From: Candidatus Thorarchaeota archaeon | GTDB lineage: Archaea > Asgardarchaeota > Thorarchaeia > Thorarchaeales > Thorarchaeaceae | Assembly: GCA_048882045.1 (NCBI GenBank) | Contig: JBHLRZ010000006.1 | Span: 1-64,000, forward strand | DNA: 64,000 nucleotides | Reading direction: 5' to 3' | Shown here: positions 11,614 to 47,565 of the stretch, in pieces | How positions within the stretch are numbered: the stretch's first letter is position 1 | Layout of the letters: the number at the start of each line of letters is the position of its first letter | Made by a program: the position numbers and the translations under genes | The notes under the pieces: model-generated | Databases searched by the model: none | Told to the model about the DNA's origin: nothing | Seen by the model: only the letters and a program-made list of their open reading frames with translations

Positions 11614-12030
11614 ATGACGGAAATCAAGTGGGATGATAGCCTTTCTGTACATGTTGAGCTGATTGACGAGCAACACAAGATGTTGATCCAGCGAATAAGA
11701 GACCTATCAGATGCAGTCAATTCAAGTAGAGGAGCAACTGAGATTGGTAAGACTCTTGGATTCATGATTGACTACACAGAGTTTCACTTTTCAACTGAAG
11801 AGAAACATATGAAGGAACTAGGCTATCCAGGATTCGATGTGCACAGAGGTCAGCATGATGATTTCAAGTCAACACTCAATGAGATGGTCATGGAATTTGA
11901 AGAAGATGGAGCAACTGCACAGCTCAGTGAGTGGGTAAACCAATATCTCATCAACTGGCTTGTTAACCATATCAAATCGATTGACACGAAGCTTGCAGTT
12001 TTCCTTCAGGACAAAGGATTCGAGGGATAG
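11614..12030 (+). CDS. Bacteriohemerythrin (di-iron O2-binding protein)
   Basis: W..S.SV...IDEQH, YTEFHFSTEE, HRGQH, WLVNHI...D: full hemerythrin ligand set. Confidence 0.93.
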   Translation: MTEIKWDDSLSVHVELIDEQHKMLIQRIRDLSDAVNSSRGATEIGKTLGFMIDYTEFHFSTEEKHMKELGYPGFDVHRGQHDDFKSTLNEMVMEFEEDGATAQLSEWVNQYLINWLVNHIKSIDTKLAVFLQDKGFEG

Positions 12031-12054
12031 AAAACTCAACCCCCTTGAATCCTT
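12014..12054. terminator. Inverted repeat between convergent genes
   Basis: AAGGATTCGAGGG (12014-26) / CCCTTGAATCCTT (12042-54), 13 bp with one G-T pair. Confidence 0.5.
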
Positions 12055-12056
12055 CC

Positions 12057-12941
12057 TTATCTCAATTTTAGAATTTTAGCGATATTTGCATTTGAATCAA
12101 TTATTGGATCAATCAGTCCTCTTGTTGATGTGAATAGAGTCGTTACGCCTGGACCGTGACCAGAGATTACACAATCACTGTGTACAACGATACCTACGGA
12201 AACAGCATCCTTCTTGTAGATTCGGCCATAGGAATGGTCGGCATCAATGATTGCTACTAGGTCTCCGAACCTCAGGTCCTCAAGTCCATATTCAGCAGTG
12301 GTTCCTTCATCAAAGAGCTGAATGTCATAGTCTCCAGAGTATACTTGATCCGCACCTAGTCCTGAACCCATTATTTTCGCTGGGACTAAGTGTGTGACTG
12401 GGATTCCCAGTTTATCGCCGCTGTCTTGGAAGTTAATTTTCTTGACAACTCCAGGGTCAATGTTCATTACTTTGATATCAGGATAATCAAGAAGCTCTAG
12501 ACCTTGCCCGTAAGCCTTGATCATCATCTTGTCACCGATAGCGAGTTTCTCCATTGTTTCCTCAGAGAAATCAACCATGACATGTTCTATACCACCATGT
12601 TTGCCAACTACTGTTCCAACCTCGTCTTTTGCATCACTTTTACCAATCACCTTGGCCTCGTTACCTACACAAGCGAGCACATTCAAGGATGTGTTTGCAG
12701 CTGTCTTGAATCTAGCATCATTCTCTTTGTTCTCAATACTCACACCGGGTTCGACATGGTCAGCTTTCCAGCCTGTGGCCAAATCTCCAACGCGAATGTT
12801 GTATGTGATTCCACCTACACCAGGCAGTGAAACAGGTCTTCCATCATGTGTAATTCGGTATGGTGAGCGCGCTACAGGACTCGCGACCTCACCCATTACA
12901 GAAATCTTCACAATTTTACTTTCGTTCGTTTTGACTTGCAT
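12057..12941 (-). CDS. DUF4438 / TM1086-like conserved protein
   Basis: PGVGGITYNIRVGD..GW.ADHVEPGVS, CVGNEA, KHGGIEHV, MGSGLG, GDYDIQ, GHGPGVT motifs recalled for this family. Confidence 0.8.
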   Translation of the reverse strand: MQVKTNESKIVKISVMGEVASPVARSPYRITHDGRPVSLPGVGGITYNIRVGDLATGWKADHVEPGVSIENKENDARFKTAANTSLNVLACVGNEAKVIGKSDAKDEVGTVVGKHGGIEHVMVDFSEETMEKLAIGDKMMIKAYGQGLELLDYPDIKVMNIDPGVVKKINFQDSGDKLGIPVTHLVPAKIMGSGLGADQVYSGDYDIQLFDEGTTAEYGLEDLRFGDLVAIIDADHSYGRIYKKDAVSVGIVVHSDCVISGHGPGVTTLFTSTRGLIDPIIDSNANIAKILKLR

Positions 12942-13010
12942 GTTTGAATCAGCTGTGTTAGATTGACATTATCTACCACATAAGAGTGATGATATCAGAA
13001 CACGAACCTA

Positions 13011-13841
13011 TCATAGATGTTTTTCAAGCCACTTGAACATATCACTGAATACTTCCTCGCCACCTTCCTCGTGGTATGGTTCATGATACAGCCCAGGATA
13101 TAGTTTCCAAGTTTTGTCCTCAGAAGCAATATTATCGAAAAACTCCTTGTTCCGATCAGGATCAAGAATCATGTCATCTCCGGATTGCTGGACCAACACC
13201 GGAACTGTGATTCTACTTGCTGATTCAAACGCTTCTTTACTGGCTTTGAGTCCTTCAATAGCATACCTAGGTGTCGCCTTGTCAAATCTAAGTGGATCCT
13301 CTCGATTGTCTTTGACAATATCTGCATTCCTCGATATCAATTCATGATCGAGACCATTGTCAATGTACATCTTCACATTCAGCTTTGACAGGAAAGCTCC
13401 CATTTTTCTCGTTGCAGCACTAACCTTGAGTCTCTCTGAAACTGCGGGAGCTGGGATAATGATTCCTTCAGCCTCACCCGGATGTTTCAGAATATAATGG
13501 ATTATGAATATGGCACCTAGAGAGTGACCCCATAGAAACAGCATCTTGTCTTGATGAAGGAGTTTCAAATAGGCGACCAATGATTCCATATCCTCAGTAT
13601 ATTCATCAAAACTCTCAACATGACCCTTACGACCAGGAAACGTACCAAAACCTCGCATATCGGGGGCGTAGAAAGTATATCCCTGATCGGTGAATCTTTC
13701 GCCCATGTATTCTAAACGACCACTGTGAGACCCCAATCCGTGCAAACCAAGTACAATTGCCTTGGGGTTTCCTTCTGGTTTCCAGATTCTCAATAACATT
13801 GTTGTGCCATCGAATCCCTGGTATGTACTCTCTTCGCTCAT
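13011..13841 (-). CDS. Alpha/beta hydrolase, lysophospholipase/monoacylglycerol lipase type
   Basis: LHGLGSHSGR, DMRGFG, nucleophile GHSLG, Asp in SGDDMI, His in YPGLYHEP. Confidence 0.9.
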   Translation of the reverse strand: MSEESTYQGFDGTTMLLRIWKPEGNPKAIVLGLHGLGSHSGRLEYMGERFTDQGYTFYAPDMRGFGTFPGRKGHVESFDEYTEDMESLVAYLKLLHQDKMLFLWGHSLGAIFIIHYILKHPGEAEGIIIPAPAVSERLKVSAATRKMGAFLSKLNVKMYIDNGLDHELISRNADIVKDNREDPLRFDKATPRYAIEGLKASKEAFESASRITVPVLVQQSGDDMILDPDRNKEFFDNIASEDKTWKLYPGLYHEPYHEEGGEEVFSDMFKWLEKHL

Positions 13842-13893
13842 CTAAGGAACCACAAAAACACAGCAGCTTCGTGCCCTATGTGTCTTCCGAAAC

Positions 13894-14703
13894 TCAGGAA
13901 TCTTGTTCATCAATAAATGCGAACTTCTTGTTCGGATAGTCAATAACAGTTTCATACTTCCTCAAGAAGTCGTAACCAATGATACCGTTCTCAATCAACT
14001 TTCCTTTGGGAGAAACACGTCCTAGATCGATGACAACCAATTGTGTATTTGCGATCATGGATTTGCCAACCGCTAGTGAGTCACATGGAGCAAGCTCCAA
14101 CGGAACATCACCACCAACACCTCGAGCAACCCCCTCCACTGCTTGAGATTGCAGCCCTAATTTCTTCGCGAGGGATGGTGTAACACATGAGTTACCAGCA
14201 CCTGTATCTAGAACGAAATCATATGGCCCATGACCATTGATATGAACGGGGATTCCCACAAGATGTGATTTATTGACATACTCAAAAGGAATCCAATCCA
14301 GATCAGGACTGGAATTCCCTTTACTCAGTTTGAATCTCTGTTTATTGTAGCTGAGTGACATTGTGCAATGTTTCAACGTGGTATATCCCAGAACACCATC
14401 TCGGTTTCCGCAACTAAGAATTTTGTCGAGGTCTAGAACATAGACTTCATCCTGTTCAAAATCGAGGGGACCGACACTGATAGAGGCATCAGCAAAGAGT
14501 GTGGGTACTCCCCCACCTAAGCCACGAGCGTCAGGTCGACCACTCTGCCTTGTAGGAATTCCCAGTTTCTCCGCTAATCCCACAGTCAGAGTGGTAGTCG
14601 ATGCCCCGGTATCTAGGTTGAAAGTGAAGGGGCCTTGCGAATTAACATGAACTGGGATTTTCACAAGACGTGTACTAGGTTCAATCTCGACTTCGAACTC
14701 CAT
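13894..14703 (-). CDS. Tandem two-domain retropepsin-like (clan AA) aspartic protease
   Basis: Two homologous halves, each with FxLDTGA, a flap ARG(L/V)GG and G(V/I)(L/I)GY; SD GAGGTG before ATG 14703. Confidence 0.88.
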   Translation of the reverse strand: MEFEVEIEPSTRLVKIPVHVNSQGPFTFNLDTGASTTTLTVGLAEKLGIPTRQSGRPDARGLGGGVPTLFADASISVGPLDFEQDEVYVLDLDKILSCGNRDGVLGYTTLKHCTMSLSYNKQRFKLSKGNSSPDLDWIPFEYVNKSHLVGIPVHINGHGPYDFVLDTGAGNSCVTPSLAKKLGLQSQAVEGVARGVGGDVPLELAPCDSLAVGKSMIANTQLVVIDLGRVSPKGKLIENGIIGYDFLRKYETVIDYPNKKFAFIDEQDS

Positions 14704-37649: not shown

Positions 37650-39551
37650 CTAAGATTTTTCTCCTTGAGGAGGTTTGATTTTATCCAATTCTTCTTGGAG
37701 CTGTTTCTCAATCTTACCAAGTTTGAAGTTCTTGGCTGATGCTATCGCCTGTTCTAAGGCAGATATGATTCTCTGCTCTTCTAGCTCTTTCTCAGTATTA
37801 TCTGCAATTTTTGGGAGTGCTTCGATCTTTCTTGGTATGACAGCAAGTAGACTCTCAATTGCGCTCTTCGCTTCATCTCGATTCGTAAATGACGAGTCTT
37901 GCTCAGTATCATAGGATGAAACAATTCTGTCAATCTGACTATAGAGACGTCTATACTCCTCATAGGCTCCAGACAATATCTGCCTTACCTCTCCTTCAGA
38001 ATCTGCTTCTTCAAGTGCATCAGAGAGTTTCTTCATAGCATTCTCAAGGAACTCCTTTCTCTCAGCAAGTTTAGTCCGTTTCCTTTCCATCCATCGCCAT
38101 TCATTCGAGATCTGTCGGGATAGGGTAAGTGCCTCGGTGATTGTTTCTCGAAACTCCGCAAACAGTTCCATTGCTTCCTTAAGTTCCACTTCAAGAGTTT
38201 CTATAACATGAACAAGTTGGTAGCTCAGCATATCACCTGCTTGGGCCTCAGCAAGAACCCTGCTCTCCTTGACGGTTCGTTCAGTATTAGCCCAGAGCTT
38301 CTCTACATCATCAGGATCACGATCTGTCCTCTTTCGGACCTCAAGTTCCTCTGAGAGTTGATGAATGTCATGATTGAGAGCTTGGAGTTCCTGGATCTTT
38401 GCTTTCAACAATGCCTTGCCAAGTCGGACGTTGAGCTCATCTGTGAGTAATTGTCGCTCTTCTGGAACCTCCAAGAGGGCGTGAGTGTTATCAACGAGAG
38501 TCTGAAGAGCGTTCTCATAATCCAAGACTGACTCGTGAAACAGACCCTCTTGATACCTATCATCACCCCTCTTCTCCAACTCAAGAGCGCTCTCTAGAAC
38601 ATCATAGGGAGAAGTTTTCAATAAGCTGTCTGCCCACATCGGAGGGATGTCAGTACAAATGTCGAGTGGTTTTCCTGCGATTCGTAAAAGAATGACTAGA
38701 ATCGATTCTGCGGTTGCTACATAGAGTTTGTCTTGATCCGCAGATATCCAGTTGATCTTCTGACCGTTGAGCTTCACAAGACCTACTTCTTCACCCCTCT
38801 TCAAATCCCAAACAACAATCGATCCTGAAGTCATTGCAGCGACCAGATAAAACTCACTAGCCCACATTGATGAAATAGAACTTGAGTGACTTGGTTCTAA
38901 TGTACGTAGAAGACTCCATTCAACTCTATCATAGACTGCTATCTCACCGGTAGATAATCCTACTATCACAAATTCATTATTACCCGATATTACACCGCCT
39001 TTGCCCTTCTTGTCTAGACTAGCAAGCTCTGAAGGAGCAGAGTTCTGGGACTTTAGCCATACCTTCGGTTCTTCCTTCTTCGTACTAGTACAGATGATTC
39101 GAGCGTCCGACCAGAGGTCCGTGATATCAGACTTATGTAGTTGCCAGCTTGAGGTTTCATGCGTATTCTTCTTGATGGAAACCAATCGTCCCTCTCTCGC
39201 ACCCACGTAGAAGTAGTCACCAGAAAGTGTCGATGTAAGAGCGTGGTAGCTCAGTTCAAACCAACCTTGGAGACCCCAGGTTTCTTTGTTCCAGACATAT
39301 ACTCTTCTCTCACAGGTAGCAAAGACTTGTGTTTCATCAACGTCGACAACCAATGGAGGAGTATCAGTTTCACCGAGTTCAGCTACTAAATGCCAATCTT
39401 CCTTCGACCACACACGGACTCGTTGATCCTCACAAGCAGTGTACAAGTACTTGTCATCATAAGTAATGTCAACTGCTGATGCATCTAGTGTATTAATTAC
39501 CTCATGAGTCAATGTCCTAAGATCATTGGAACTCGATGATCCTTTTTCCAT
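37650..39551 (-). CDS. 7-bladed WD40 beta-propeller + MIT/TPR-like helical bundle + coiled-coil protein
   Basis: Seven blade-like units (LYTACEDQRVRVW, VFATCERRVYVW, FYVGAREGRL, ICTSTKKEEPKVW, VIVGLSTGEIAVYD, LVAAMTSGSIVVWD, LYVATAESIL), then an all-helical E/K/L-rich half. Confidence 0.82.
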   Translation of the reverse strand: MEKGSSSSNDLRTLTHEVINTLDASAVDITYDDKYLYTACEDQRVRVWSKEDWHLVAELGETDTPPLVVDVDETQVFATCERRVYVWNKETWGLQGWFELSYHALTSTLSGDYFYVGAREGRLVSIKKNTHETSSWQLHKSDITDLWSDARIICTSTKKEEPKVWLKSQNSAPSELASLDKKGKGGVISGNNEFVIVGLSTGEIAVYDRVEWSLLRTLEPSHSSSISSMWASEFYLVAAMTSGSIVVWDLKRGEEVGLVKLNGQKINWISADQDKLYVATAESILVILLRIAGKPLDICTDIPPMWADSLLKTSPYDVLESALELEKRGDDRYQEGLFHESVLDYENALQTLVDNTHALLEVPEERQLLTDELNVRLGKALLKAKIQELQALNHDIHQLSEELEVRKRTDRDPDDVEKLWANTERTVKESRVLAEAQAGDMLSYQLVHVIETLEVELKEAMELFAEFRETITEALTLSRQISNEWRWMERKRTKLAERKEFLENAMKKLSDALEEADSEGEVRQILSGAYEEYRRLYSQIDRIVSSYDTEQDSSFTNRDEAKSAIESLLAVIPRKIEALPKIADNTEKELEEQRIISALEQAIASAKNFKLGKIEKQLQEELDKIKPPQGEKS

Positions 39552-39767
39552 AATGTCTCCCCAAGAGAACAGTGTGATGAATGGATATTCTGGGTTTTGC
39601 AATACTTAAGGCAGTTTCTTTCTTGGCTAAACAGCGATAGAATGCAATAAAATGACATCTGGAGGAGGGGATATACATGATAAATTCGTTAAAATGGGAG
39701 GACCCACACAGAAAGAACTTAAGACATCCACCGCCAAATTAGCCCACATTAGACGGAGGTAGGCATC

Positions 39768-42458
39768 TTGGACACTAGTGGCTGGCGCCGAGAATTAGAC
39801 AAAATGGCTGAACTGAAAGGAATCCTAGTCTCAGTCAATCCTGCGATGGAAGAACAGTCAGATCGTCAGGTCAGACAGCTCTATGACATCTTCGCGAACT
39901 TGACTAAGATGGAGAACGATTTAGCAACTTCTGGATTTATGAAAAAGAGAAAGGTTCAGACTCAGGTCGAGAAGACAAGGAGTGATCTTGAAACCGATTT
40001 CATGAGAGTCACACGTGATTTCGCTGAGTACTTCCGGAAAGAACACAAAGATACTCTAGCTATCGCACCGAAAGTCCAGGCCCTAAAACCTTCTGAGGTC
40101 AAAGGGATTTCGACACTTAATTTTCCAGGCATCGGAGCAGGCGACCTCAAGGACTTCGAGAAGTTGCACGAGTTTGCAAAGGCATTTTCAAAGTTGTATC
40201 TTGTTATTCATGAGGATGTAGAACGCGATGTGAAATCTACCCTTGATGAGAACAAGGCTACAGTTGACACGTACGAACGTCACATATCTATCGATAAGAG
40301 TGAGGTTTCCACAACAGTTGCAAATGACGATGTTGCTGGAATGTCATTAAAAGACCTCATAATCCTGAATGACAAACTTCAGGCAGACCGTCAGTTCCTT
40401 GATGGCAGAAAGGACGAGGTGAGTAAACTCCTTGGTTCATCCCTTGTGGGTAAAACGGAATCACTACAAGCTTCTGTGGAGACTGCATCCAGACTAGGAC
40501 TTGAGTTGCCGATCGAATTCTCAAAGGAGTTGAGAATAATTGCCAGAGATGCATCAAAGGCCGAAACTCTGACTGCGCTGATTGCGTTGGAGAATCAACT
40601 GCATGCAGCAGAGGTCAAGATGGCAAATGCACTTCGTGACAAGATAATCAACATCAAGCATGATGTCACAGCCAAGATAGTGGAGGGCGGCATACCAACG
40701 ACTGCTGATGTGATACCTCCAGCACCTCCAGTTACAGTTGAAGGAGAGGGCATTGCTAGCCTGCTTTCCAGCTATCAGAGAATGGTCGAATGGGAAGGTC
40801 AGGTCAAGATCGCTCTCAGAGAACGCTTGTTCGAACTCCTTGATGATGTTGAGAAGGCGACTGAAGCGCCCGAAGACGCAGGTATCAAGGATATTGTTGC
40901 AGTACGTCAATTCATCGCGGATTCAAAGAAGAAACTGAAGCAGGTAGAGATTGACGAGATGGTGAGAGTCTACCTCCAAGCAAAACAGATGGATGATGAG
41001 TACCGAAGGAACATCACTGAGGCCATCCGCAACTATCTCTCAAGATTCAATGAACTAGCAACTTCAGCAGACAGAGTACTTGACCACGCACAGCTAAGTA
41101 AGAAGGCTCCGAAGGTCGAGGAACTTGAAGGAGGTATTGTCTACTTACTAGGTTCTCTCACGAGCCTCAGAGAAGCAGTTGACAGCGGAGTGGCAACTTT
41201 TCGCACCGCATGTCAACAGGAGATTGATGCAATAGTTCATGATCTTCAGACCGTCAAACCTGCATATGCTGAGATATTCATGCCCATTATTGTAGAACTC
41301 GATGAAGGATCAACCAGGATACAGGGGATGGATGACTTCTCTGAGATAAAATCAGAGATGCGCTCCATCAAAGATGGTATCCTTGTGAAAGCACAGGACG
41401 CACTTGAGAACCTCAGATATAGACTAGGTGTGAAGATCAGACTTGCAGCTGCAAAATTGATGGGTGCTGGTGTGGAGATCCCGCCAGACGCACAAGAAGC
41501 CATCAGCGAACTGAACAGCGTGGGTGTTGCAGCTGATAATGTGTTTAGTCTTCCAGCCATAGCCAGGAAGATGGTTGAGATCTATGAGAAGAAGATCCAA
41601 GACAAGATAATTGAGAAACTTGGAGTAGAAGTCGATTCTCTAATCACGAGTCTCGATAGAGCAAGCAGCATCGGAGTGAAGTTAGGAAAAGAACTCAAGA
41701 TGCTCAATGGTCTAAAAGCCAAACCACCAGCAGAGCTTGAGGAAGCAGCTGATGCATTTGACAAACTCCAGAATCTGACAACATCACCCAACGTTCACAA
41801 GAAGATCAGAGAGCGTGTTGATGAAGCCTATGTTCAGATCAAGGGAGCTCTGTCACTCTTTGAAGACCAAGGAATGTCTGAATTCGTCGAGCGGCTACAG
41901 ATTCTCATTGACCAAGTTCCTGCCAAGCTCGAAACTGACTCACCACATGTCAATGAGGCACTTGATGTGTGTCTCACTCTTGCCAACATCCAGGAAGAAA
42001 TGCTTCAGATGATTAAGAGCATAGCTGAGAAGAATGGTGAGGCTCATACTGCTGAACTCAAGGATAGAAGCCAGTACTTTTCGACAATCGAGAGAGTAGT
42101 AGCGAAGTATCCTGATGAATTCAGCAAGATAGTATTTGATGTCAAGAAGATGGACTCTCTAGAGTCTGGCCTCACAGAGGCGGTCGATCTTGATGTGGCC
42201 ATTGCTAACTTCCATGAATTGGGCGATATGAGAAAGCAGTGGCTGGAGAAAGCAGTCGCGATGGATGACTGGCACAAGTCCCTCAGAATGTTCATGACTG
42301 GTTTCAGTCCGACTGACAAACCTGATACACGTGACAAGTTCATCGACGACGCAATACGAAAGATTAAGGAGACCTACAGCCGTGAGGACATAAGTTCGTA
42401 CCTAAGTTGGGCCATAAGAGAGAGTGCCCAGGCGTTGGTCGATTCGAGGAAGAAATAG
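39768..42458 (+). CDS. 896-aa all-helical rod protein with degenerate ~65-aa repeat; first gene of tubulin-like operon
   Basis: Strong SD GGAGGT before TTG; long amphipathic helices; periodic G-hydrophobic turns; no TM or NTPase motif. Confidence 0.8.
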   Translation: MDTSGWRRELDKMAELKGILVSVNPAMEEQSDRQVRQLYDIFANLTKMENDLATSGFMKKRKVQTQVEKTRSDLETDFMRVTRDFAEYFRKEHKDTLAIAPKVQALKPSEVKGISTLNFPGIGAGDLKDFEKLHEFAKAFSKLYLVIHEDVERDVKSTLDENKATVDTYERHISIDKSEVSTTVANDDVAGMSLKDLIILNDKLQADRQFLDGRKDEVSKLLGSSLVGKTESLQASVETASRLGLELPIEFSKELRIIARDASKAETLTALIALENQLHAAEVKMANALRDKIINIKHDVTAKIVEGGIPTTADVIPPAPPVTVEGEGIASLLSSYQRMVEWEGQVKIALRERLFELLDDVEKATEAPEDAGIKDIVAVRQFIADSKKKLKQVEIDEMVRVYLQAKQMDDEYRRNITEAIRNYLSRFNELATSADRVLDHAQLSKKAPKVEELEGGIVYLLGSLTSLREAVDSGVATFRTACQQEIDAIVHDLQTVKPAYAEIFMPIIVELDEGSTRIQGMDDFSEIKSEMRSIKDGILVKAQDALENLRYRLGVKIRLAAAKLMGAGVEIPPDAQEAISELNSVGVAADNVFSLPAIARKMVEIYEKKIQDKIIEKLGVEVDSLITSLDRASSIGVKLGKELKMLNGLKAKPPAELEEAADAFDKLQNLTTSPNVHKKIRERVDEAYVQIKGALSLFEDQGMSEFVERLQILIDQVPAKLETDSPHVNEALDVCLTLANIQEEMLQMIKSIAEKNGEAHTAELKDRSQYFSTIERVVAKYPDEFSKIVFDVKKMDSLESGLTEAVDLDVAIANFHELGDMRKQWLEKAVAMDDWHKSLRMFMTGFSPTDKPDTRDKFIDDAIRKIKETYSREDISSYLSWAIRESAQALVDSRKK

Positions 42459-42470
42459 GAGTAAACACCA

Positions 42471-43862
42471 ATGTTCGGAAGTAGTCCACCTAGAACCCCC
42501 ATTGAAGACGATACCACAAAAGCAGCCGAGGTTTTCGCCATTGGAATTGGCGAATGTGGCTCAAACATCGTGGGATCCTACCTTCAGACAAGCAGGGACA
42601 AGAAACTACCCTCAAGAGTGAGGGGCTATCTACTCATCAACACTGACAGAGCAGACCTGACAAAGGTACGCCAAAAATATGGCATACCAAAAGAGAACAC
42701 ACTCCTATATGGTGCCAGCGAAATCGGTGTCGGTGGCCGGTTCATGGATGGTTATAATAGTATCATGGAATCAAAGGACATCATCTTCGACCAGCTCAGT
42801 AACTTGGGTTTCGAAGGCGTTTCAGGCTTCTGTATCTTCACAAGCCTTGGCGGTGGAACTGGTTGCGGAGGTACACCAGCACTCATCGAGCTGCTCAAGC
42901 AGAGATTCCAAGAAGAAGAAGGACGACGTATCTTTGTATATGTCATAGGAATCTTGCCCTTCGAGGGACAGTCTAGTGAGGCACTGAATTCAATCTGGGC
43001 TGTATCGAAGTTGCTTCGAGCTCAGCTCCAAGAACGTGGTGCAGACCTTACAATTCTACTATCAAACAGAACAATGCTGAAGAGAATCCTTCAATGGAGA
43101 AAGGGTGATACTGTAGACTACCTGCAGCGAGAGCTAGAGGTGGACATTGCAGACATCGAATCAATCGAAAAAATGGTCCCATCTACACTTGAGGAAGCGA
43201 GTGCAGCTGACGCGAGAACCGAACAGGCATTCGTCGAACTCGTCAACCCACTTGCTCTTGATGTCGTGGAGGCCATGTTATCACCAGGTGTGTGGGAAAA
43301 ATCAAAGGATGTCTTTCCAACCACAGATCTTGCAGACTATGCTAGAAAGCTAGATCCTGTTGTAGTACCTGCGCTCTATACTGACATTGGTCTCATACCT
43401 GACGCTGGGAGTATGCCCAAGCAGTTGAGGACAATGATTGACTATGCTGTGAAGGAGTGTTCATACGCTGACGTCGGTGAAGAACCGAATGCCGAGAGTG
43501 TCTACTATGTGATGTCAGGTCCAAGGCATGTTGCGAAAGCAGAATTTGGGATGCATGTGAAGGAAGCACTGGACAAGTTCATTGCTCCCGGTGCAGCTAT
43601 CACACCTTGTTACGTCCAATACCTTGACCAAGACCCTAAGACCAACCTGCTTCTTCTCCTTGGCTTGCCAAAGATACCTGAACTTGTTCAGATCATCAAT
43701 GAAGCTACCCAGCTGGTGAATCTTCACAGTGGTGCCTCACCACTCAAGCAAGGATGGTTCATGAGGTCGAAGGGTACTACTCGAAAAGAACTCGTTGATG
43801 CTATCAATGACTTCCGTGAACTCTTCAGTTACTACATGACTCCAGGAGAAACAATGGAATAG
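42471..43862 (+). CDS. Divergent tubulin/FtsZ/CetZ-superfamily GTPase
   Basis: T1 IGIGECGSNI, T2 LINTD, T3 GVGGRFMDG, T4 SLGGGTGCGG, T5 ILPFEG, T6 LLSN, T7 TTDLADY. Confidence 0.92.
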   Translation: MFGSSPPRTPIEDDTTKAAEVFAIGIGECGSNIVGSYLQTSRDKKLPSRVRGYLLINTDRADLTKVRQKYGIPKENTLLYGASEIGVGGRFMDGYNSIMESKDIIFDQLSNLGFEGVSGFCIFTSLGGGTGCGGTPALIELLKQRFQEEEGRRIFVYVIGILPFEGQSSEALNSIWAVSKLLRAQLQERGADLTILLSNRTMLKRILQWRKGDTVDYLQRELEVDIADIESIEKMVPSTLEEASAADARTEQAFVELVNPLALDVVEAMLSPGVWEKSKDVFPTTDLADYARKLDPVVVPALYTDIGLIPDAGSMPKQLRTMIDYAVKECSYADVGEEPNAESVYYVMSGPRHVAKAEFGMHVKEALDKFIAPGAAITPCYVQYLDQDPKTNLLLLLGLPKIPELVQIINEATQLVNLHSGASPLKQGWFMRSKGTTRKELVDAINDFRELFSYYMTPGETME

Positions 43863-45027: not shown

Positions 45028-46434
45028 ATGACTGGCCTAAAGACTATGTTGAATCCAAAAGTGACTGCTGTTGTAGGTGTTTCGACTACTAATCCTTTCA
45101 GTCCAGGTAATGTAATCTTCAGAAAATTGGAATTCGAAAATGGTTTGCCTACATACCCCATTAATCCTAAGGGAGGGAAGGTCGAAGGGATTCCTGTCCA
45201 CAAGTCCATCACTGCTGCACCTGATGACATTGAGTTGGCAGTGATCTCGGTTCCTGCAAAATATGTACCAGGTGTGTTAAGGGAGTGTGGAGAGAAGAAG
45301 ATACGGTCAGTCATAGTGGTCTCAGGAGGATTCAGTGAAGTTGGAGAAACCGGTGCAAATCTTCAATCAGAAATTGTCGAGATTGCAAACCAATACAAAA
45401 TATCCATGGTCGGACCAAACTGCATTGGTGTGTTTGTCCCAGATGTCCTAGATACATTTTTCCTTCCCTCTGAAAGGGTTGCACGACCTAGAAAGGGGAA
45501 AGTAGCAGTCATATCACAGAGTGGAGGTTGGCTGATCGAGCGACTTGAAGAGTTTGCAGATAGAGATGTAGGTATTGCTGCTGCAATTTCAATTGGTAAC
45601 TCTGCTCAGACAAAAGTGACTGATTTCATCAGGTACTTTGGAAATGAAAAGACTGTGGATGTCATTTGTGCATATATTGAAGGCTTCGGACAAGATGAAG
45701 GGAGAGAGTTTGTTGAAACATGCAAGGAGATTGTACTGAAAAAGCCAGTTATTGTTCTGAAAGGTGGAGAATCGGAAGCTGGTCACCGAGCGACACAAAG
45801 TCACACATCATCTTTAGCTGGAGACAATGCAATAACAAATGCAGCTTTCCAACAGTATGGGGTGATTCGTGCACTCGATGAGGATGAGGTGATGGCATAC
45901 TCGAAGGTGTTTTCGTTCAAACCGAAACCTATGCTTGGACCTCGTATCGGCACATTGACCGTGAGCGGTGGTCATGGAGTCATAGCCAGTGACGAAGCGT
46001 CTCATTATGGTCTCACAATGCCGCCATTCAGTCAGGAAGAACAATCTATAATGAGAGCACAGATGACGCCAGCATATCAAGGGATTGCATCATTTAGGAA
46101 TCCATGTGATCTCACTGGTAGTGCTGCAGATGTTGATTACGAACGTGTCTTGGATAAAATGCTCAGTTTTGATTCAATAGATGCTGCACTTCTACTGTTA
46201 CTACCATATGCTCCAGGTATCTCACTTCAGATTGGCGCGAGAGTGGCAAATGTTGCAAAAAGTCATGACAAGACTATTGTAGCTTACGTTCCAGACCTTG
46301 ACAAATACGAAGTGATCATTCGAGGATTTGAGTTGAACGGTATTGCAGTCGGGGATACAATTGAAGAGGCTGTCCAAATGGTGAATGCGATCCGGAAGAG
46401 GACGAAATATCTTCAACGCTTAGGAAAGTTATGA
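45028..46434 (+). CDS. acdA: Acetate/acyl-CoA ligase (ADP-forming) alpha subunit
   Basis: AVVGVS, YPINPK, SGGFSE.G, GPNCIG, SQSGG, SIGN, YIEG, phospho-His SHTSSLAG, NP.DLTG. Confidence 0.88.
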   Translation: MTGLKTMLNPKVTAVVGVSTTNPFSPGNVIFRKLEFENGLPTYPINPKGGKVEGIPVHKSITAAPDDIELAVISVPAKYVPGVLRECGEKKIRSVIVVSGGFSEVGETGANLQSEIVEIANQYKISMVGPNCIGVFVPDVLDTFFLPSERVARPRKGKVAVISQSGGWLIERLEEFADRDVGIAAAISIGNSAQTKVTDFIRYFGNEKTVDVICAYIEGFGQDEGREFVETCKEIVLKKPVIVLKGGESEAGHRATQSHTSSLAGDNAITNAAFQQYGVIRALDEDEVMAYSKVFSFKPKPMLGPRIGTLTVSGGHGVIASDEASHYGLTMPPFSQEEQSIMRAQMTPAYQGIASFRNPCDLTGSAADVDYERVLDKMLSFDSIDAALLLLLPYAPGISLQIGARVANVAKSHDKTIVAYVPDLDKYEVIIRGFELNGIAVGDTIEEAVQMVNAIRKRTKYLQRLGKL

Positions 46435-47565
46435 TTAGATCCCACTGGCAATCTTTAGGTAGTCTATGCCTAAGGACTTCAGAGACTCAACAAGCTTGCC
46501 ACTTAGGATAAGTTTCTTGGATGAAAGTTCCTCAACCTTTTGTGAACCTGTCAGGTACATTGCGACTCTCAGTCCTTCTAGCATTCGTTCTAACTCTATA
46601 ACAACATCAAGGGCGCTTCCATGTACTGCAGGACGCAAGAGGGGATGGGCGACTCCAGCGGCAATTGATCCGAGAGCAAGAGCCTTGGCAATATCAAGTC
46701 CACTCCGGATCCCACCAGTAGCTATTACATCGAGGTCAGTGGCATCCAGCACCATCAATACACTGAGTGCAGTGGGTATTCCCCAATCCCAGAATTCTAG
46801 TCCAAGCTGTGCATTTAGGTCATCATCTTCTTTCAATGCTCGATAGTATTCAACTCCAGCCCAGCTTGTTCCTCCGACTCCACCCACATCGACACCTACA
46901 ACACCTGCATCTTCCAAACTCTTTGCTACCTCTCCGGATATACCCGCACCAGTTTCCTTTATGATGACTGGAACGTCAACGGAATCAACAATCATGGCGA
47001 TACTCTCTAGAGCTCCTTCAGAGTTACAGTCCCCCTCAGGTTGAATAGCTTCTTGGAGTGGATTGAGATGAACCGCAAGGATGTCAGCTTCTATCATTGA
47101 TACTGCTTCTGGAGCAACCTTGACATGAGTGGCACCGATATTAGCAATTATTGGAACAGATGGTGCGGTTTCCCTGACAATTCGGAATGTATCGGCCAAT
47201 GATGGATCCTCCACTGCAGCTCGTTGGCTACCCACACCTATGGGGAGCCCCAGCTCCTCCGCAGCACTAGCGAGTTTCTGGTTTACATTCAAGGTCTGGG
47301 GATGTCCACCAGTCATTGCAGCAATTATGAGCGGTGCACCAGCACGAAGTCCAAAGAAGTTTGTAGTGAGGTCAATACTGTCCTTATCAATCTCAGGTAG
47401 TGCGTTATGAACGAAATCTATGTCCTCAAACATTGTAGATCGTTGGCACTGGACATCCTCATCAAGGCAGATCTCGATGTGTTCAATCTTTCTTCTTCTT
47501 GTCAGTGAAGACTCAGAAGATTCATCCTCTGAACTTGAATCTGAATATGACCGTCCTTCAACCAT
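46435..47565 (-). CDS. fni: Isopentenyl-diphosphate isomerase type 2 (FMN-dependent)
   Basis: RKIEHI, MTGG, GVGSQRAA, NIG, HLNPLQE..QPEGD, KETGAG, GGTSW..VE..R, WGIPT, GGIR.G.D..KA. Confidence 0.95.
   Translation of the reverse strand: MVEGRSYSDSSSEDESSESSLTRRRKIEHIEICLDEDVQCQRSTMFEDIDFVHNALPEIDKDSIDLTTNFFGLRAGAPLIIAAMTGGHPQTLNVNQKLASAAEELGLPIGVGSQRAAVEDPSLADTFRIVRETAPSVPIIANIGATHVKVAPEAVSMIEADILAVHLNPLQEAIQPEGDCNSEGALESIAMIVDSVDVPVIIKETGAGISGEVAKSLEDAGVVGVDVGGVGGTSWAGVEYYRALKEDDDLNAQLGLEFWDWGIPTALSVLMVLDATDLDVIATGGIRSGLDIAKALALGSIAAGVAHPLLRPAVHGSALDVVIELERMLEGLRVAMYLTGSQKVEELSSKKLILSGKLVESLKSLGIDYLKIASGI

Follow-up and report, generated by a model that had tools for sequence, protein, structure and literature searches.

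Introduction

How tubulin arose from FtsZ- or CetZ-like ancestors is an open question, and its answer is being sought in the Asgard archaea (OdinTubulin, AtubA/B). A CetZ-like Asgard paralogue, Asg.Tub, was named by Santana-Molina, del Saz-Navarro and Devos (2023, Front Microbiol, PMC9871819), who found its placement to be unstable between CetZ and tubulins, with trees that set it between both. In that study the neighbours of Asg.Tub were coiled-coil genes, a hidden Markov model (HMM) of its C-terminus found no counterpart in other families, and the authors noted no more than a "limited similarity to CetZ"; arguing from indels and midpoint rooting, they concluded that Asg.Tub is CetZ-like and nearer to CetZ, artubulins being the closer tubulin relatives. 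A 2026 study of Asgard tubulins (bioRxiv 10.64898/2026.02.15.705738, PMC13394414) treated Asg.Tub as an outgroup, the "CetZ-related Asgard archaeal clade", and structural or functional work on Asg.Tub was not found in our literature search. Here we describe the Asg.Tub gene in a 64,000-nt stretch of DNA (the window) from Candidatus Thorarchaeota archaeon (GCA_048882045.1, contig JBHLRZ010000006.1). Its product, P0001, is a 463-amino acid (aa) tubulin-superfamily GTPase with a conserved tubulin-like H11′-H12 tail on a CetZ-like core, a combination not stated in the Asg.Tub literature that we found.

By its sequence, P0001 is a member of this Asgard-restricted and already published family. The supplement of PMC9871819 lists four Asg.Tub sequences, from two Thorarchaeales, Heimdall LC-3 and Heimdall B3-JM-08, and these (KXH77455.1, OLS30664.1, OLS26264.1 and PWI48967.1) share the N-terminus and the motifs GIGECGSN, GGGTGCG and TTDLAD of the P0001 family. 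P0116, the counterpart of OLS26264.1 (Heimdall LC-3) in our alignment, has 50% identity to P0001 across 97% of its length. An earlier note on this DNA had proposed a possibly distinct lineage; it is distinct from OdinTubulin and AtubA/B in our tree, but it is the lineage already published as Asg.Tub. Our observations agree with PMC9871819 in the motifs, in the unstable position between CetZ and tubulin and in the helical or coiled-coil neighbours. That paper gives no structure, H11′-H12 comparison, defined cassette or partner interface for Asg.Tub; these, and the spread of the family over sampled genomes, are added here.

Among solved structures, P0001 was nearest by sequence to CetZ1, CetZ and CetZ2 (4b46, E 1.4e-10, then 3zid and 4b45), followed by AtubA, BtubB and alpha- and gamma-tubulins at E near 1e-3 over the N-terminal domain only. 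Asg.Tub differs from these CetZs in having no CetZ_C match, in its position outside their clade, in the Glu of T1 and the Cys of T4, in a predicted ordered H11′-H12 that runs past the ends of the CetZ structures, and in its gene neighbourhood. With tubulins (alpha/beta/gamma, OdinTubulin 7evb, AtubA/B 9f6t, BtubA/B 2btq) it has in common the predicted topology of H11, H11′ and H12, the W-aromatic...G...A...Y pattern in H11′-H12 and a profile similarity above chance; unlike them, it has no Tubulin_C match and no acidic C-terminal tail, lies outside the tubulin clade, and resembles them in profile over no more than 109 columns of the GTPase domain. An insertion of ~40 aa ahead of H7 is a feature of Asg.Tub that neither CetZ nor tubulin has; in the window it lies at 43100-43205 (P0001 residues ~210-245), between H6 and H7, and is acidic, variable in length and predicted at low confidence (predicted local distance difference test score, pLDDT, 52-64). 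As a whole, we consider it reasonably probable that Asg.Tub unites a CetZ-like core with an H11′/H12-like tail, is encoded in a three-gene cassette, and forms a GTP filament assisted by its partners.

A tubulin-like C-terminal tail

The segment encoding residues ~401-455 of P0001 (nt 43671-43835) translates as IPELVQIINEATQL ... WFMRSKGTTRKELVDAINDFRELFSYY, as the earlier note had stated. The structure of P0001 was predicted with AlphaFold2 (AF2) from its own alignment and without templates, giving a pLDDT of 80.6 and a predicted template modelling score (pTM) of 0.83. In the model, the last strand (391-398) is followed by helices at 403-419, 424-434 and 438-455, with pLDDT values of 86-90. 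A Foldseek search with the model placed CetZ 3zid, OdinTubulin, and gamma- and beta-tubulins level at E ~1e-17. When the model was aligned structurally with Odin, Atub, Btub, beta- and gamma-tubulin (VIA; 356-368 residues at 3.1-3.9 Å), the match reached model residues 457-463, paired with chain residues 424-440, whereas alignments to CetZ crystal structures ended at 417-426. The ordered structure of CetZ ends at H11, in line with these ranges. Since the tubulin alignments reach the end of the model and the CetZ alignments stop short of it, the predicted C-terminus of P0001 has H11′ and H12 as tubulins do, beyond the point where the CetZ crystal structures end. The H11/H12-like C-terminus claimed earlier is thus borne out in the model, where the predicted H11, H11′ and H12 arrangement superposes on that of tubulins.

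The earlier note had allowed that the tail might be unconserved among orthologues; in an alignment of 34 orthologues, the tail instead ranked among the best-conserved parts of the protein. Residues P400, E404, A412, L415, H419, S423, W429, F430, K434, G435 and L451 were invariant, and K426, R432, S433, L441, A444, D447 and F452 nearly so. H12 was conserved on its buried face only (L441, A444, D447, L451, F452 and Y455), while its solvent-facing positions (439, 440, 443, 446, 449, 450 and 453) varied.

To compare the tail with tubulins, a set of tubulin tails was retrieved, consisting of beta-tubulin (P0277:230-674 and P0276:254-695), gamma-tubulin (P0212), BtubA/B, Loki Atubs, and the AtubA/B, Odin-type and f21-type tubulins of loci L007-L014. 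An alignment by eye with one gap matched W429-F430 to the W-Y of tubulins, G435 to G, A444 to A and Y455 to Y, so that the beta-tubulin alignment of the earlier note was reproduced in retrieved sequences, with the W/aromatic pair, G, A and terminal Y in register across one gap. When the P0001-family tail (399-463) was compared with the tubulin tails by hhalign, a score of 27.0 (probability 70%) was obtained, with K426-Y455 matched to H11′-H12 and the H11′-like segment 424-435 paired with the tubulin "AF.HWY..G" segment. In 300 column shuffles the score was 9.2 ± 2.0 (maximum 16.8), and none of the 300 reached 27.0. The reversed tail profile scored 12.1 against the tubulin tails, 35 windows of natural helix taken from both partner families scored 10.5 ± 2.6 (maximum 18.4), and CetZ tails scored 8.0. 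The P0001-family tail scored 22.5 against CetZ tails, covering H11 and a terminal D/E-x-x-L-F-like motif. The H11 part (403-419) lay outside the tubulin-tail alignment and paired with CetZ H11.

An H12-like "R..NL..Y" in another non-canonical family (P0143, P0144, P0147 and relatives) was also considered and was rejected, its hhalign score of 12.5 lying within its null distribution (8.2 ± 1.7, maximum 13.1); the tails of this family were retained as a negative control. Because the score of 27.0 stands against shuffled, reversed, natural-helix, CetZ and other-family controls of at most 18.4, the similarity of the Asg.Tub tail to tubulin H11′-H12 is specific and above chance in the profile comparison, if modest. 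The tubulin-like H11-H12 tail of the first reading therefore holds in its H11′-H12 part; H11 is CetZ-like.

A CetZ-like core

PF00091 (Tubulin/FtsZ GTPase; 71.8 bits against a cut-off of 33) was the sole Pfam domain matched in P0001; Tubulin_C (PF03953) and CetZ_C (PF21011) gave no match at E ≤ 1, FtsZ_C gave none, and the FtsZ equivalog model TIGR00065 gave 31 bits, far under its cut-off of 295. The motifs T1 GIGECGSN, T2 NTD, T4 GGGTGCG, T5 LPFEG and T7 TTDLAD were invariant or nearly so in the orthologues. The T7 consensus of tubulins is N-x-D-x-x-E/K, whereas Asg.Tub has D-x-x-D and no Asn; both catalytic-type aspartates, D286 and D289, are invariant. With the family-specific Glu and Cys set aside, the combination of GxGECG in T1, NTD in T2, GGGTGCG in T4 and DxxD in T7 is a CetZ-like mix. 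The motifs that had been taken for an FtsZ/tubulin mosaic are thus real in P0001, but such a mix is usual among CetZ-like proteins.

Profile comparison was carried out with 12 verified CetZs, each with a CetZ_C match (E 6e-11 to 1e-68), and with 15 tubulins. Full-length Asg.Tub aligned with the CetZs over 359 columns (hhalign probability 99.8, E 5.9e-28; residues 21-421), through H11, while the alignment with tubulins was limited to the GTPase domain (E 3e-10, 109 columns, residues 86-205); for comparison, CetZ and tubulin matched at E 1.3e-16. In the CetZ_C region, P0001 has no Pfam match yet shows profile-profile homology to CetZ. These alignments indicate that the GTPase and activation domains of Asg.Tub are homologous to CetZ through H11. 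The core, read before as partly FtsZ-like, is better described as CetZ-like.

Phylogenetic position

A maximum-likelihood tree was built with IQ-TREE (LG+C20+F+G4, posterior mean site frequency, PMSF) from 57 rows and 394 columns; P0187, P0153, P0137, P0154, P0271, P0272, P0200 and P0159 were excluded as long or unstable branches, and the sequence set was without artubulins and eukaryotic alpha-tubulin. Clades were recovered for tubulins (100/100), FtsZ (100/99), CetZ (98/87) and Asg.Tub (99/95), and Asg.Tub, for which a place firmly inside canonical CetZ or FtsZ had been allowed, fell outside the other three. The metagenomic sequences P0128 and P0139 joined it as sister group (100/99). These two sequences have GIGEGG in T1, and their tails are without the WF..SKG motif.

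FtsZ and CetZ grouped together (94/87), with Asg.Tub across the split, beside tubulins and another non-canonical clade. In approximately unbiased (AU) tests, forcing Asg.Tub to group with tubulin cost 1.2 log-likelihood (lnL) units (p 0.226) and forcing it to group with CetZ cost 7.0 (p 0.086), and neither grouping was rejected. The side of the tree on which Asg.Tub fell and the lower cost of the tubulin grouping are what would be expected if Asg.Tub were a sister or surviving intermediate of tubulin, H11′-H12 being shared and derived from an ancestor with a CetZ-like core; so are its place between CetZ and tubulins in the published trees (PMC9871819) and the tail score against tubulins, 27.0, where CetZ gave 8.0 and the other non-canonical family 12.5. 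We regard this explanation as possible but doubtful. Besides the AU tests, which decide for neither grouping, the overall profile is much nearer CetZ, P0001 has no Tubulin_C match, and PMC9871819 holds Asg.Tub to be CetZ-like and artubulins, which our tree does not include, to be closer to tubulin. Furthermore, the tubulin stem is very long (2.7 changes per column), so attraction artefacts are likely. Of the mosaic or intermediate lineage suggested in the earlier note, the position outside the CetZ, FtsZ and tubulin clades stands, while the term "intermediate" is possible yet not demonstrated, because the profile lies nearer CetZ and the AU tests reject neither grouping.

That P0001 is a divergent CetZ whose tail resembles that of tubulin by convergence or predictor bias, with no common descent or tubulin-like function, appears unlikely to us. 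Such a protein would account for the hhalign match to CetZ, which spans the whole C-terminal domain and H11, and for the score of 22.5 against CetZ tails; a long C-terminal helical stretch of the M. thermophila CetZ 3zid also pairs weakly with residues 410-452 (phmmer, not significant), short amphipathic helices converge easily, and many tubulins were included in the training of AF2. However, all 12 CetZ representatives match CetZ_C and P0001 does not at E ≤ 1, the CetZ clade (98/87) excludes Asg.Tub, CetZ tails are unlike tubulin tails (8.0), and the Asg.Tub-tubulin score exceeds those of the shuffled, reversed and natural-helix controls, with a model that was made without templates.

The three-gene cassette and its predicted complex

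The neighbourhoods of 22 other loci of the family, from at least seven Asgard family-level groups, were compared with that of P0001. In 19 of the 22, a P0002 homologue, Asg.Tub and a P0003 homologue follow one another on one strand as they do in the window, any overlap or gap between adjacent genes being no longer than ~40 nt; the gaps in the window are 12 and 16 nt. The Asg.Tub gene directly follows the P0002 homologue in 21 loci and lies 4 kb downstream of it in the other. The P0003 homologue, directly downstream in those 19, is lacking in three, two of them second copies within one genome and the other L004. In the cassette loci the P0002 homologues are 870-1185 aa long and the P0003 homologues 296-366 aa.

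In the locus with the distant rod gene (L028), the P0002 homologue at 11635-14250 (-) lies ~4 kb from the tubulin-like gene, which suggests an insertion into the cassette. Second, divergent copies (~50% identity) occur in some Hod/Heimdall-type genomes (L026 in G139:C10, L030 in G136:C85, and L004), and these consist of the rod gene and the tubulin-like gene only, without a P0003 homologue.

AF2 predicted P0002 to consist of helices only (pLDDT 85.8, pTM 0.38). In its C-terminus, W835 and H836 are invariant and W825, P848 and I866 nearly invariant. In P0003, a variable linker joins a helical N-terminal segment to a conserved C-terminal domain (EAP.ARLLQ, FNWGG.DLEKR). Neither protein had a Pfam or NCBIfam match that reached the cut-off. 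With the P0002 model as query, Foldseek retrieved only generic long helical proteins from the PDB, the best at E 0.06; in the ESM Atlas, P0002 matched its own cluster only, and nothing usable was found for P0003. A gamma-tubulin-complex (GCP)-like identity for P0002 was considered and found no support, the yeast gamma-tubulin ring complex (gamma-TuRC) chain 7m2w_G being reached by Foldseek only at E 1.4. Asg.Tub resembles BtubA/B-BtubC and TubZ-TubR/Y in being a prokaryotic tubulin-superfamily gene co-transcribed with a helical partner that is predicted on the lateral or outer polymer surface. The partners themselves differ: BtubC (tetratricopeptide repeat/kinesin-light-chain-like), TubR and TubY have no detectable relation to the rod of 870-1185 aa or the ~300-366-aa protein of the Asg.Tub cassette.

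A single complex was predicted from P0001 (18-463), P0002 (657-896) and P0003 (143-355), with P0001 scored as partner. The interaction score from predicted aligned errors (ipSAE) was 0.63 against 0.36 for the best control; 58 of 80 solved complexes attain this mark, as do 2 of 110 mismatched pairs, counts that are only rough here because our own alignments and three chains were used. At least 59% of the contacts were in common between runs, and the partner pLDDT was at least 77. The predicted interface comprises P0001 residues 303, 305-309, 311-314, 317-329 and 391, covering the end of S7, the loop between S7 and H9, and H9 itself (strand 297-306 and helix 315-329 in the AF2 model), and includes the conserved D305, P310, G313 and Q318; on P0002 it comprises 834-845 and 865-875, including the invariant W835 and H836. 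The S7-H9 loop is the position of the M-loop in tubulin, on the lateral face in microtubules. The complex prediction supports binding of the P0002 C-terminus to the lateral face of P0001.

The proposal, also made in the earlier note, that the H11-H12 ridge is a docking platform for the operon partners, as the microtubule ridge is for microtubule-associated proteins (MAPs) and motors, is in our view quite unlikely. In its favour are the strong conservation of the tail and the co-conservation of the partners; residues that the complex model does not name are uncertain rather than excluded, and the model covered P0002 from residue 657 onwards and residues 143-355 of P0003. No confident contact was seen at H11-H12 in the complex prediction, which does not count against such a contact. 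However, the solvent-facing positions of H12 vary while its buried face is conserved, and the sole confident predicted interface lies at 303-329 and 391. Docking of the partners on H12 is thus unsupported, and the conservation pattern of H12 is more that of a helix used in packing than that of a conserved ridge for docking.

Proposed mechanism

The favoured reading, in which a CetZ-like core and an H11′/H12-like tail form part of a partner-assisted filament, can be put as follows. Asg.Tub would polymerise head to tail in a GTP-dependent manner, and the invariant D286 and D289 of T7 would activate hydrolysis in the next subunit. In FtsZ and tubulin, GTP hydrolysis is activated by T7 of the neighbouring subunit, and tubulin H11′ is located at the longitudinal interface. 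By analogy, the near-invariant W429-F430-x-R-S-K-G435 turn, a better candidate for a functional surface than H12, would lie at the nucleotide-side longitudinal interface. With conservation confined to its buried face, H12 would serve mainly as a structural strap. On the lateral M-loop face, the S7-H9 loop and H9 would be clamped by the rod P0002 through its conserved C-terminal bundle, and the rod would then decorate the filaments, bundle them or limit their lateral association; P0003 would be an accessory of the main cassette. The function that seems likeliest for Asg.Tub is that of a GTP-dependent cytoskeletal filament served by two helical proteins dedicated to it.

Several points weigh against this reading. 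The hhalign probability of the tail-to-tail match is just 70%, and hhalign pairs W429-F430 with the tubulin "AF" and adds a three-residue gap, where the register by eye pairs them with "WY"; the H11 part is like CetZ and unlike tubulin. The packing of H12 is taken from a single AF2 model and was judged by aligned ranges, not coordinates. A score of 0.36 was still obtained in the control with P0002 replaced and P0003 retained, so that some of the complex score may be unspecific or due to P0003. The longitudinal-interface role of H11′ comes from analogy with tubulin only, and polymerisation, GTPase activity and binding are all computational predictions.

That P0001 is instead a non-polymerising GTPase, a soluble switch or regulator acting with two helical proteins, is very improbable. 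In its favour, filaments are so far an inference, and a ~40-residue acidic insertion of low confidence (~210-245) lies between H6 and H7. The invariant GTP loops and T7 aspartates are prerequisites of GTP-dependent polymerisation with T7-activated hydrolysis.

Distribution and significance

Every named homologue of P0001 (50-97% identity) belonged to the Asgard archaea, among them Thor-, Hod-, Heimdall- and Hermod-archaeota and "Asgardarchaeia". When 1.8 billion representatives were searched, the family proved to be isolated: members at 731 and 487 bits were followed by a metagenomic relative at 156 bits, beyond which all matches were restricted to the GTPase domain. Asg.Tub was present in 76 of 201 sampled Asgard genomes and was nearly universal in the family-level groups f1 (39/43), f12 (15/19), f15 (4/4), f16 (5/5) and f22 (9/10); it was not found in the sampled genomes of f5 (0/21) and f9 (0/40). 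True tubulins (PF03953) were detected in f3 (4/4), f21 (2/3) and f14 (1/7) only. These three groups had no Asg.Tub, and the groups with Asg.Tub had no PF03953 tubulin, among small numbers of related genomes. The distributions of Asg.Tub and true tubulins may be complementary, although with so few genomes, and these related to one another, this is a pattern and not a test. The genome of the window has two separate ordinary FtsZ genes (L001 and L002) besides P0001, and no PF03953 match at E ≤ 1e-5.

Asg.Tub, hitherto treated only as a long-branch outgroup, is widespread in Thor-, Hod- and Heimdall-type genomes that lack true tubulins in the sampled set. If its tail is a true equivalent of H11′-H12, it would provide a discrete structural character with which to root and order the CetZ, Asg.Tub, artubulin and tubulin radiation, and the outer tubulin ridge would be older than microtubules. 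For an unexplored Asgard cytoskeletal module, a concrete and testable handle is provided by the cassette together with the lateral-face clamp that the complex model predicts. A further proposal, which we put forward as speculation and hold to be rather unlikely, is that no living lineage outside tubulin is closer to it than Asg.Tub, or that Asg.Tub is an intermediate that has survived; the H11′-H12 ridge would then have arisen in Asgard archaea on a CetZ-like core, ahead of the remodelling of the tubulin core, and the rod and accessory would form a primitive, dedicated MAP-like system on the M-loop face.

Feature coordinates and neighbouring genes

Table 1. Positions of the cassette genes and of the P0001 and P0002 segments discussed in the text (nt of the window).
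Feature	Position	Strand	Basis or remark
Upstream partner P0002, 896 aa, all-helical rod of helix bundles	39768..42458	+	AF2, no family match
P0002 residues 834-875, conserved C-terminal bundle	42267..42392	+	Predicted contact with P0001
Asg.Tub-family GTPase P0001	42471..43862	+	463 aa
P0001 GTPase domain, residues 20-204	42528..43082	+	PF00091 E 1.2e-19; motif columns invariant
P0001 T7 loop TTDLAD, residues 284-289	43320..43337	+	T285, D286 and D289 invariant in 34 orthologues
P0001 end of S7, S7-H9 loop and H9, residues 303-329	43377..43457	+	Predicted P0002 docking site
P0001 H11, residues 403-419	43677..43727	+	AF2 helix, pLDDT 86-90; hhalign pairing with CetZ H11
P0001 H11′-like helix and turn, residues 424-435	43740..43772	+	AF2, conservation and hhalign
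P0001 H12-like helix, residues 438-455	43782..43835	+	AF2 helix, pLDDT 88-90; conserved on one face
Downstream partner P0003, 355 aa	43879..44946	+	Homologue directly downstream in 19/22 loci

Next to the cassette, the window encodes at 37650-39602 (-) a divergently transcribed 650-aa protein with weak, sub-cut-off WD40/beta-propeller matches in its first ~300 aa and a helical C-terminal half. This gene was considered as a part of the cassette and was set aside, as it stands beside it only in three close relatives (L015, L016 and L017). Downstream of the cassette are ordinary metabolic genes, for an ADP-forming acyl-CoA synthetase alpha-like protein (CoA_binding_2 and Succ_CoA_lig; 45028-46434, +) and a protein similar to flavin mononucleotide (FMN)-dependent dehydrogenases (46435-47565, -). 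Among the loci with true tubulins, one f14 Asgard genome (G148:C52) has a tandem AtubA/AtubB-type pair (L007/L014), and in the Odin-type and f21-type loci (L008-L013) a helical protein of 443-470 aa adjoins each tubulin gene.

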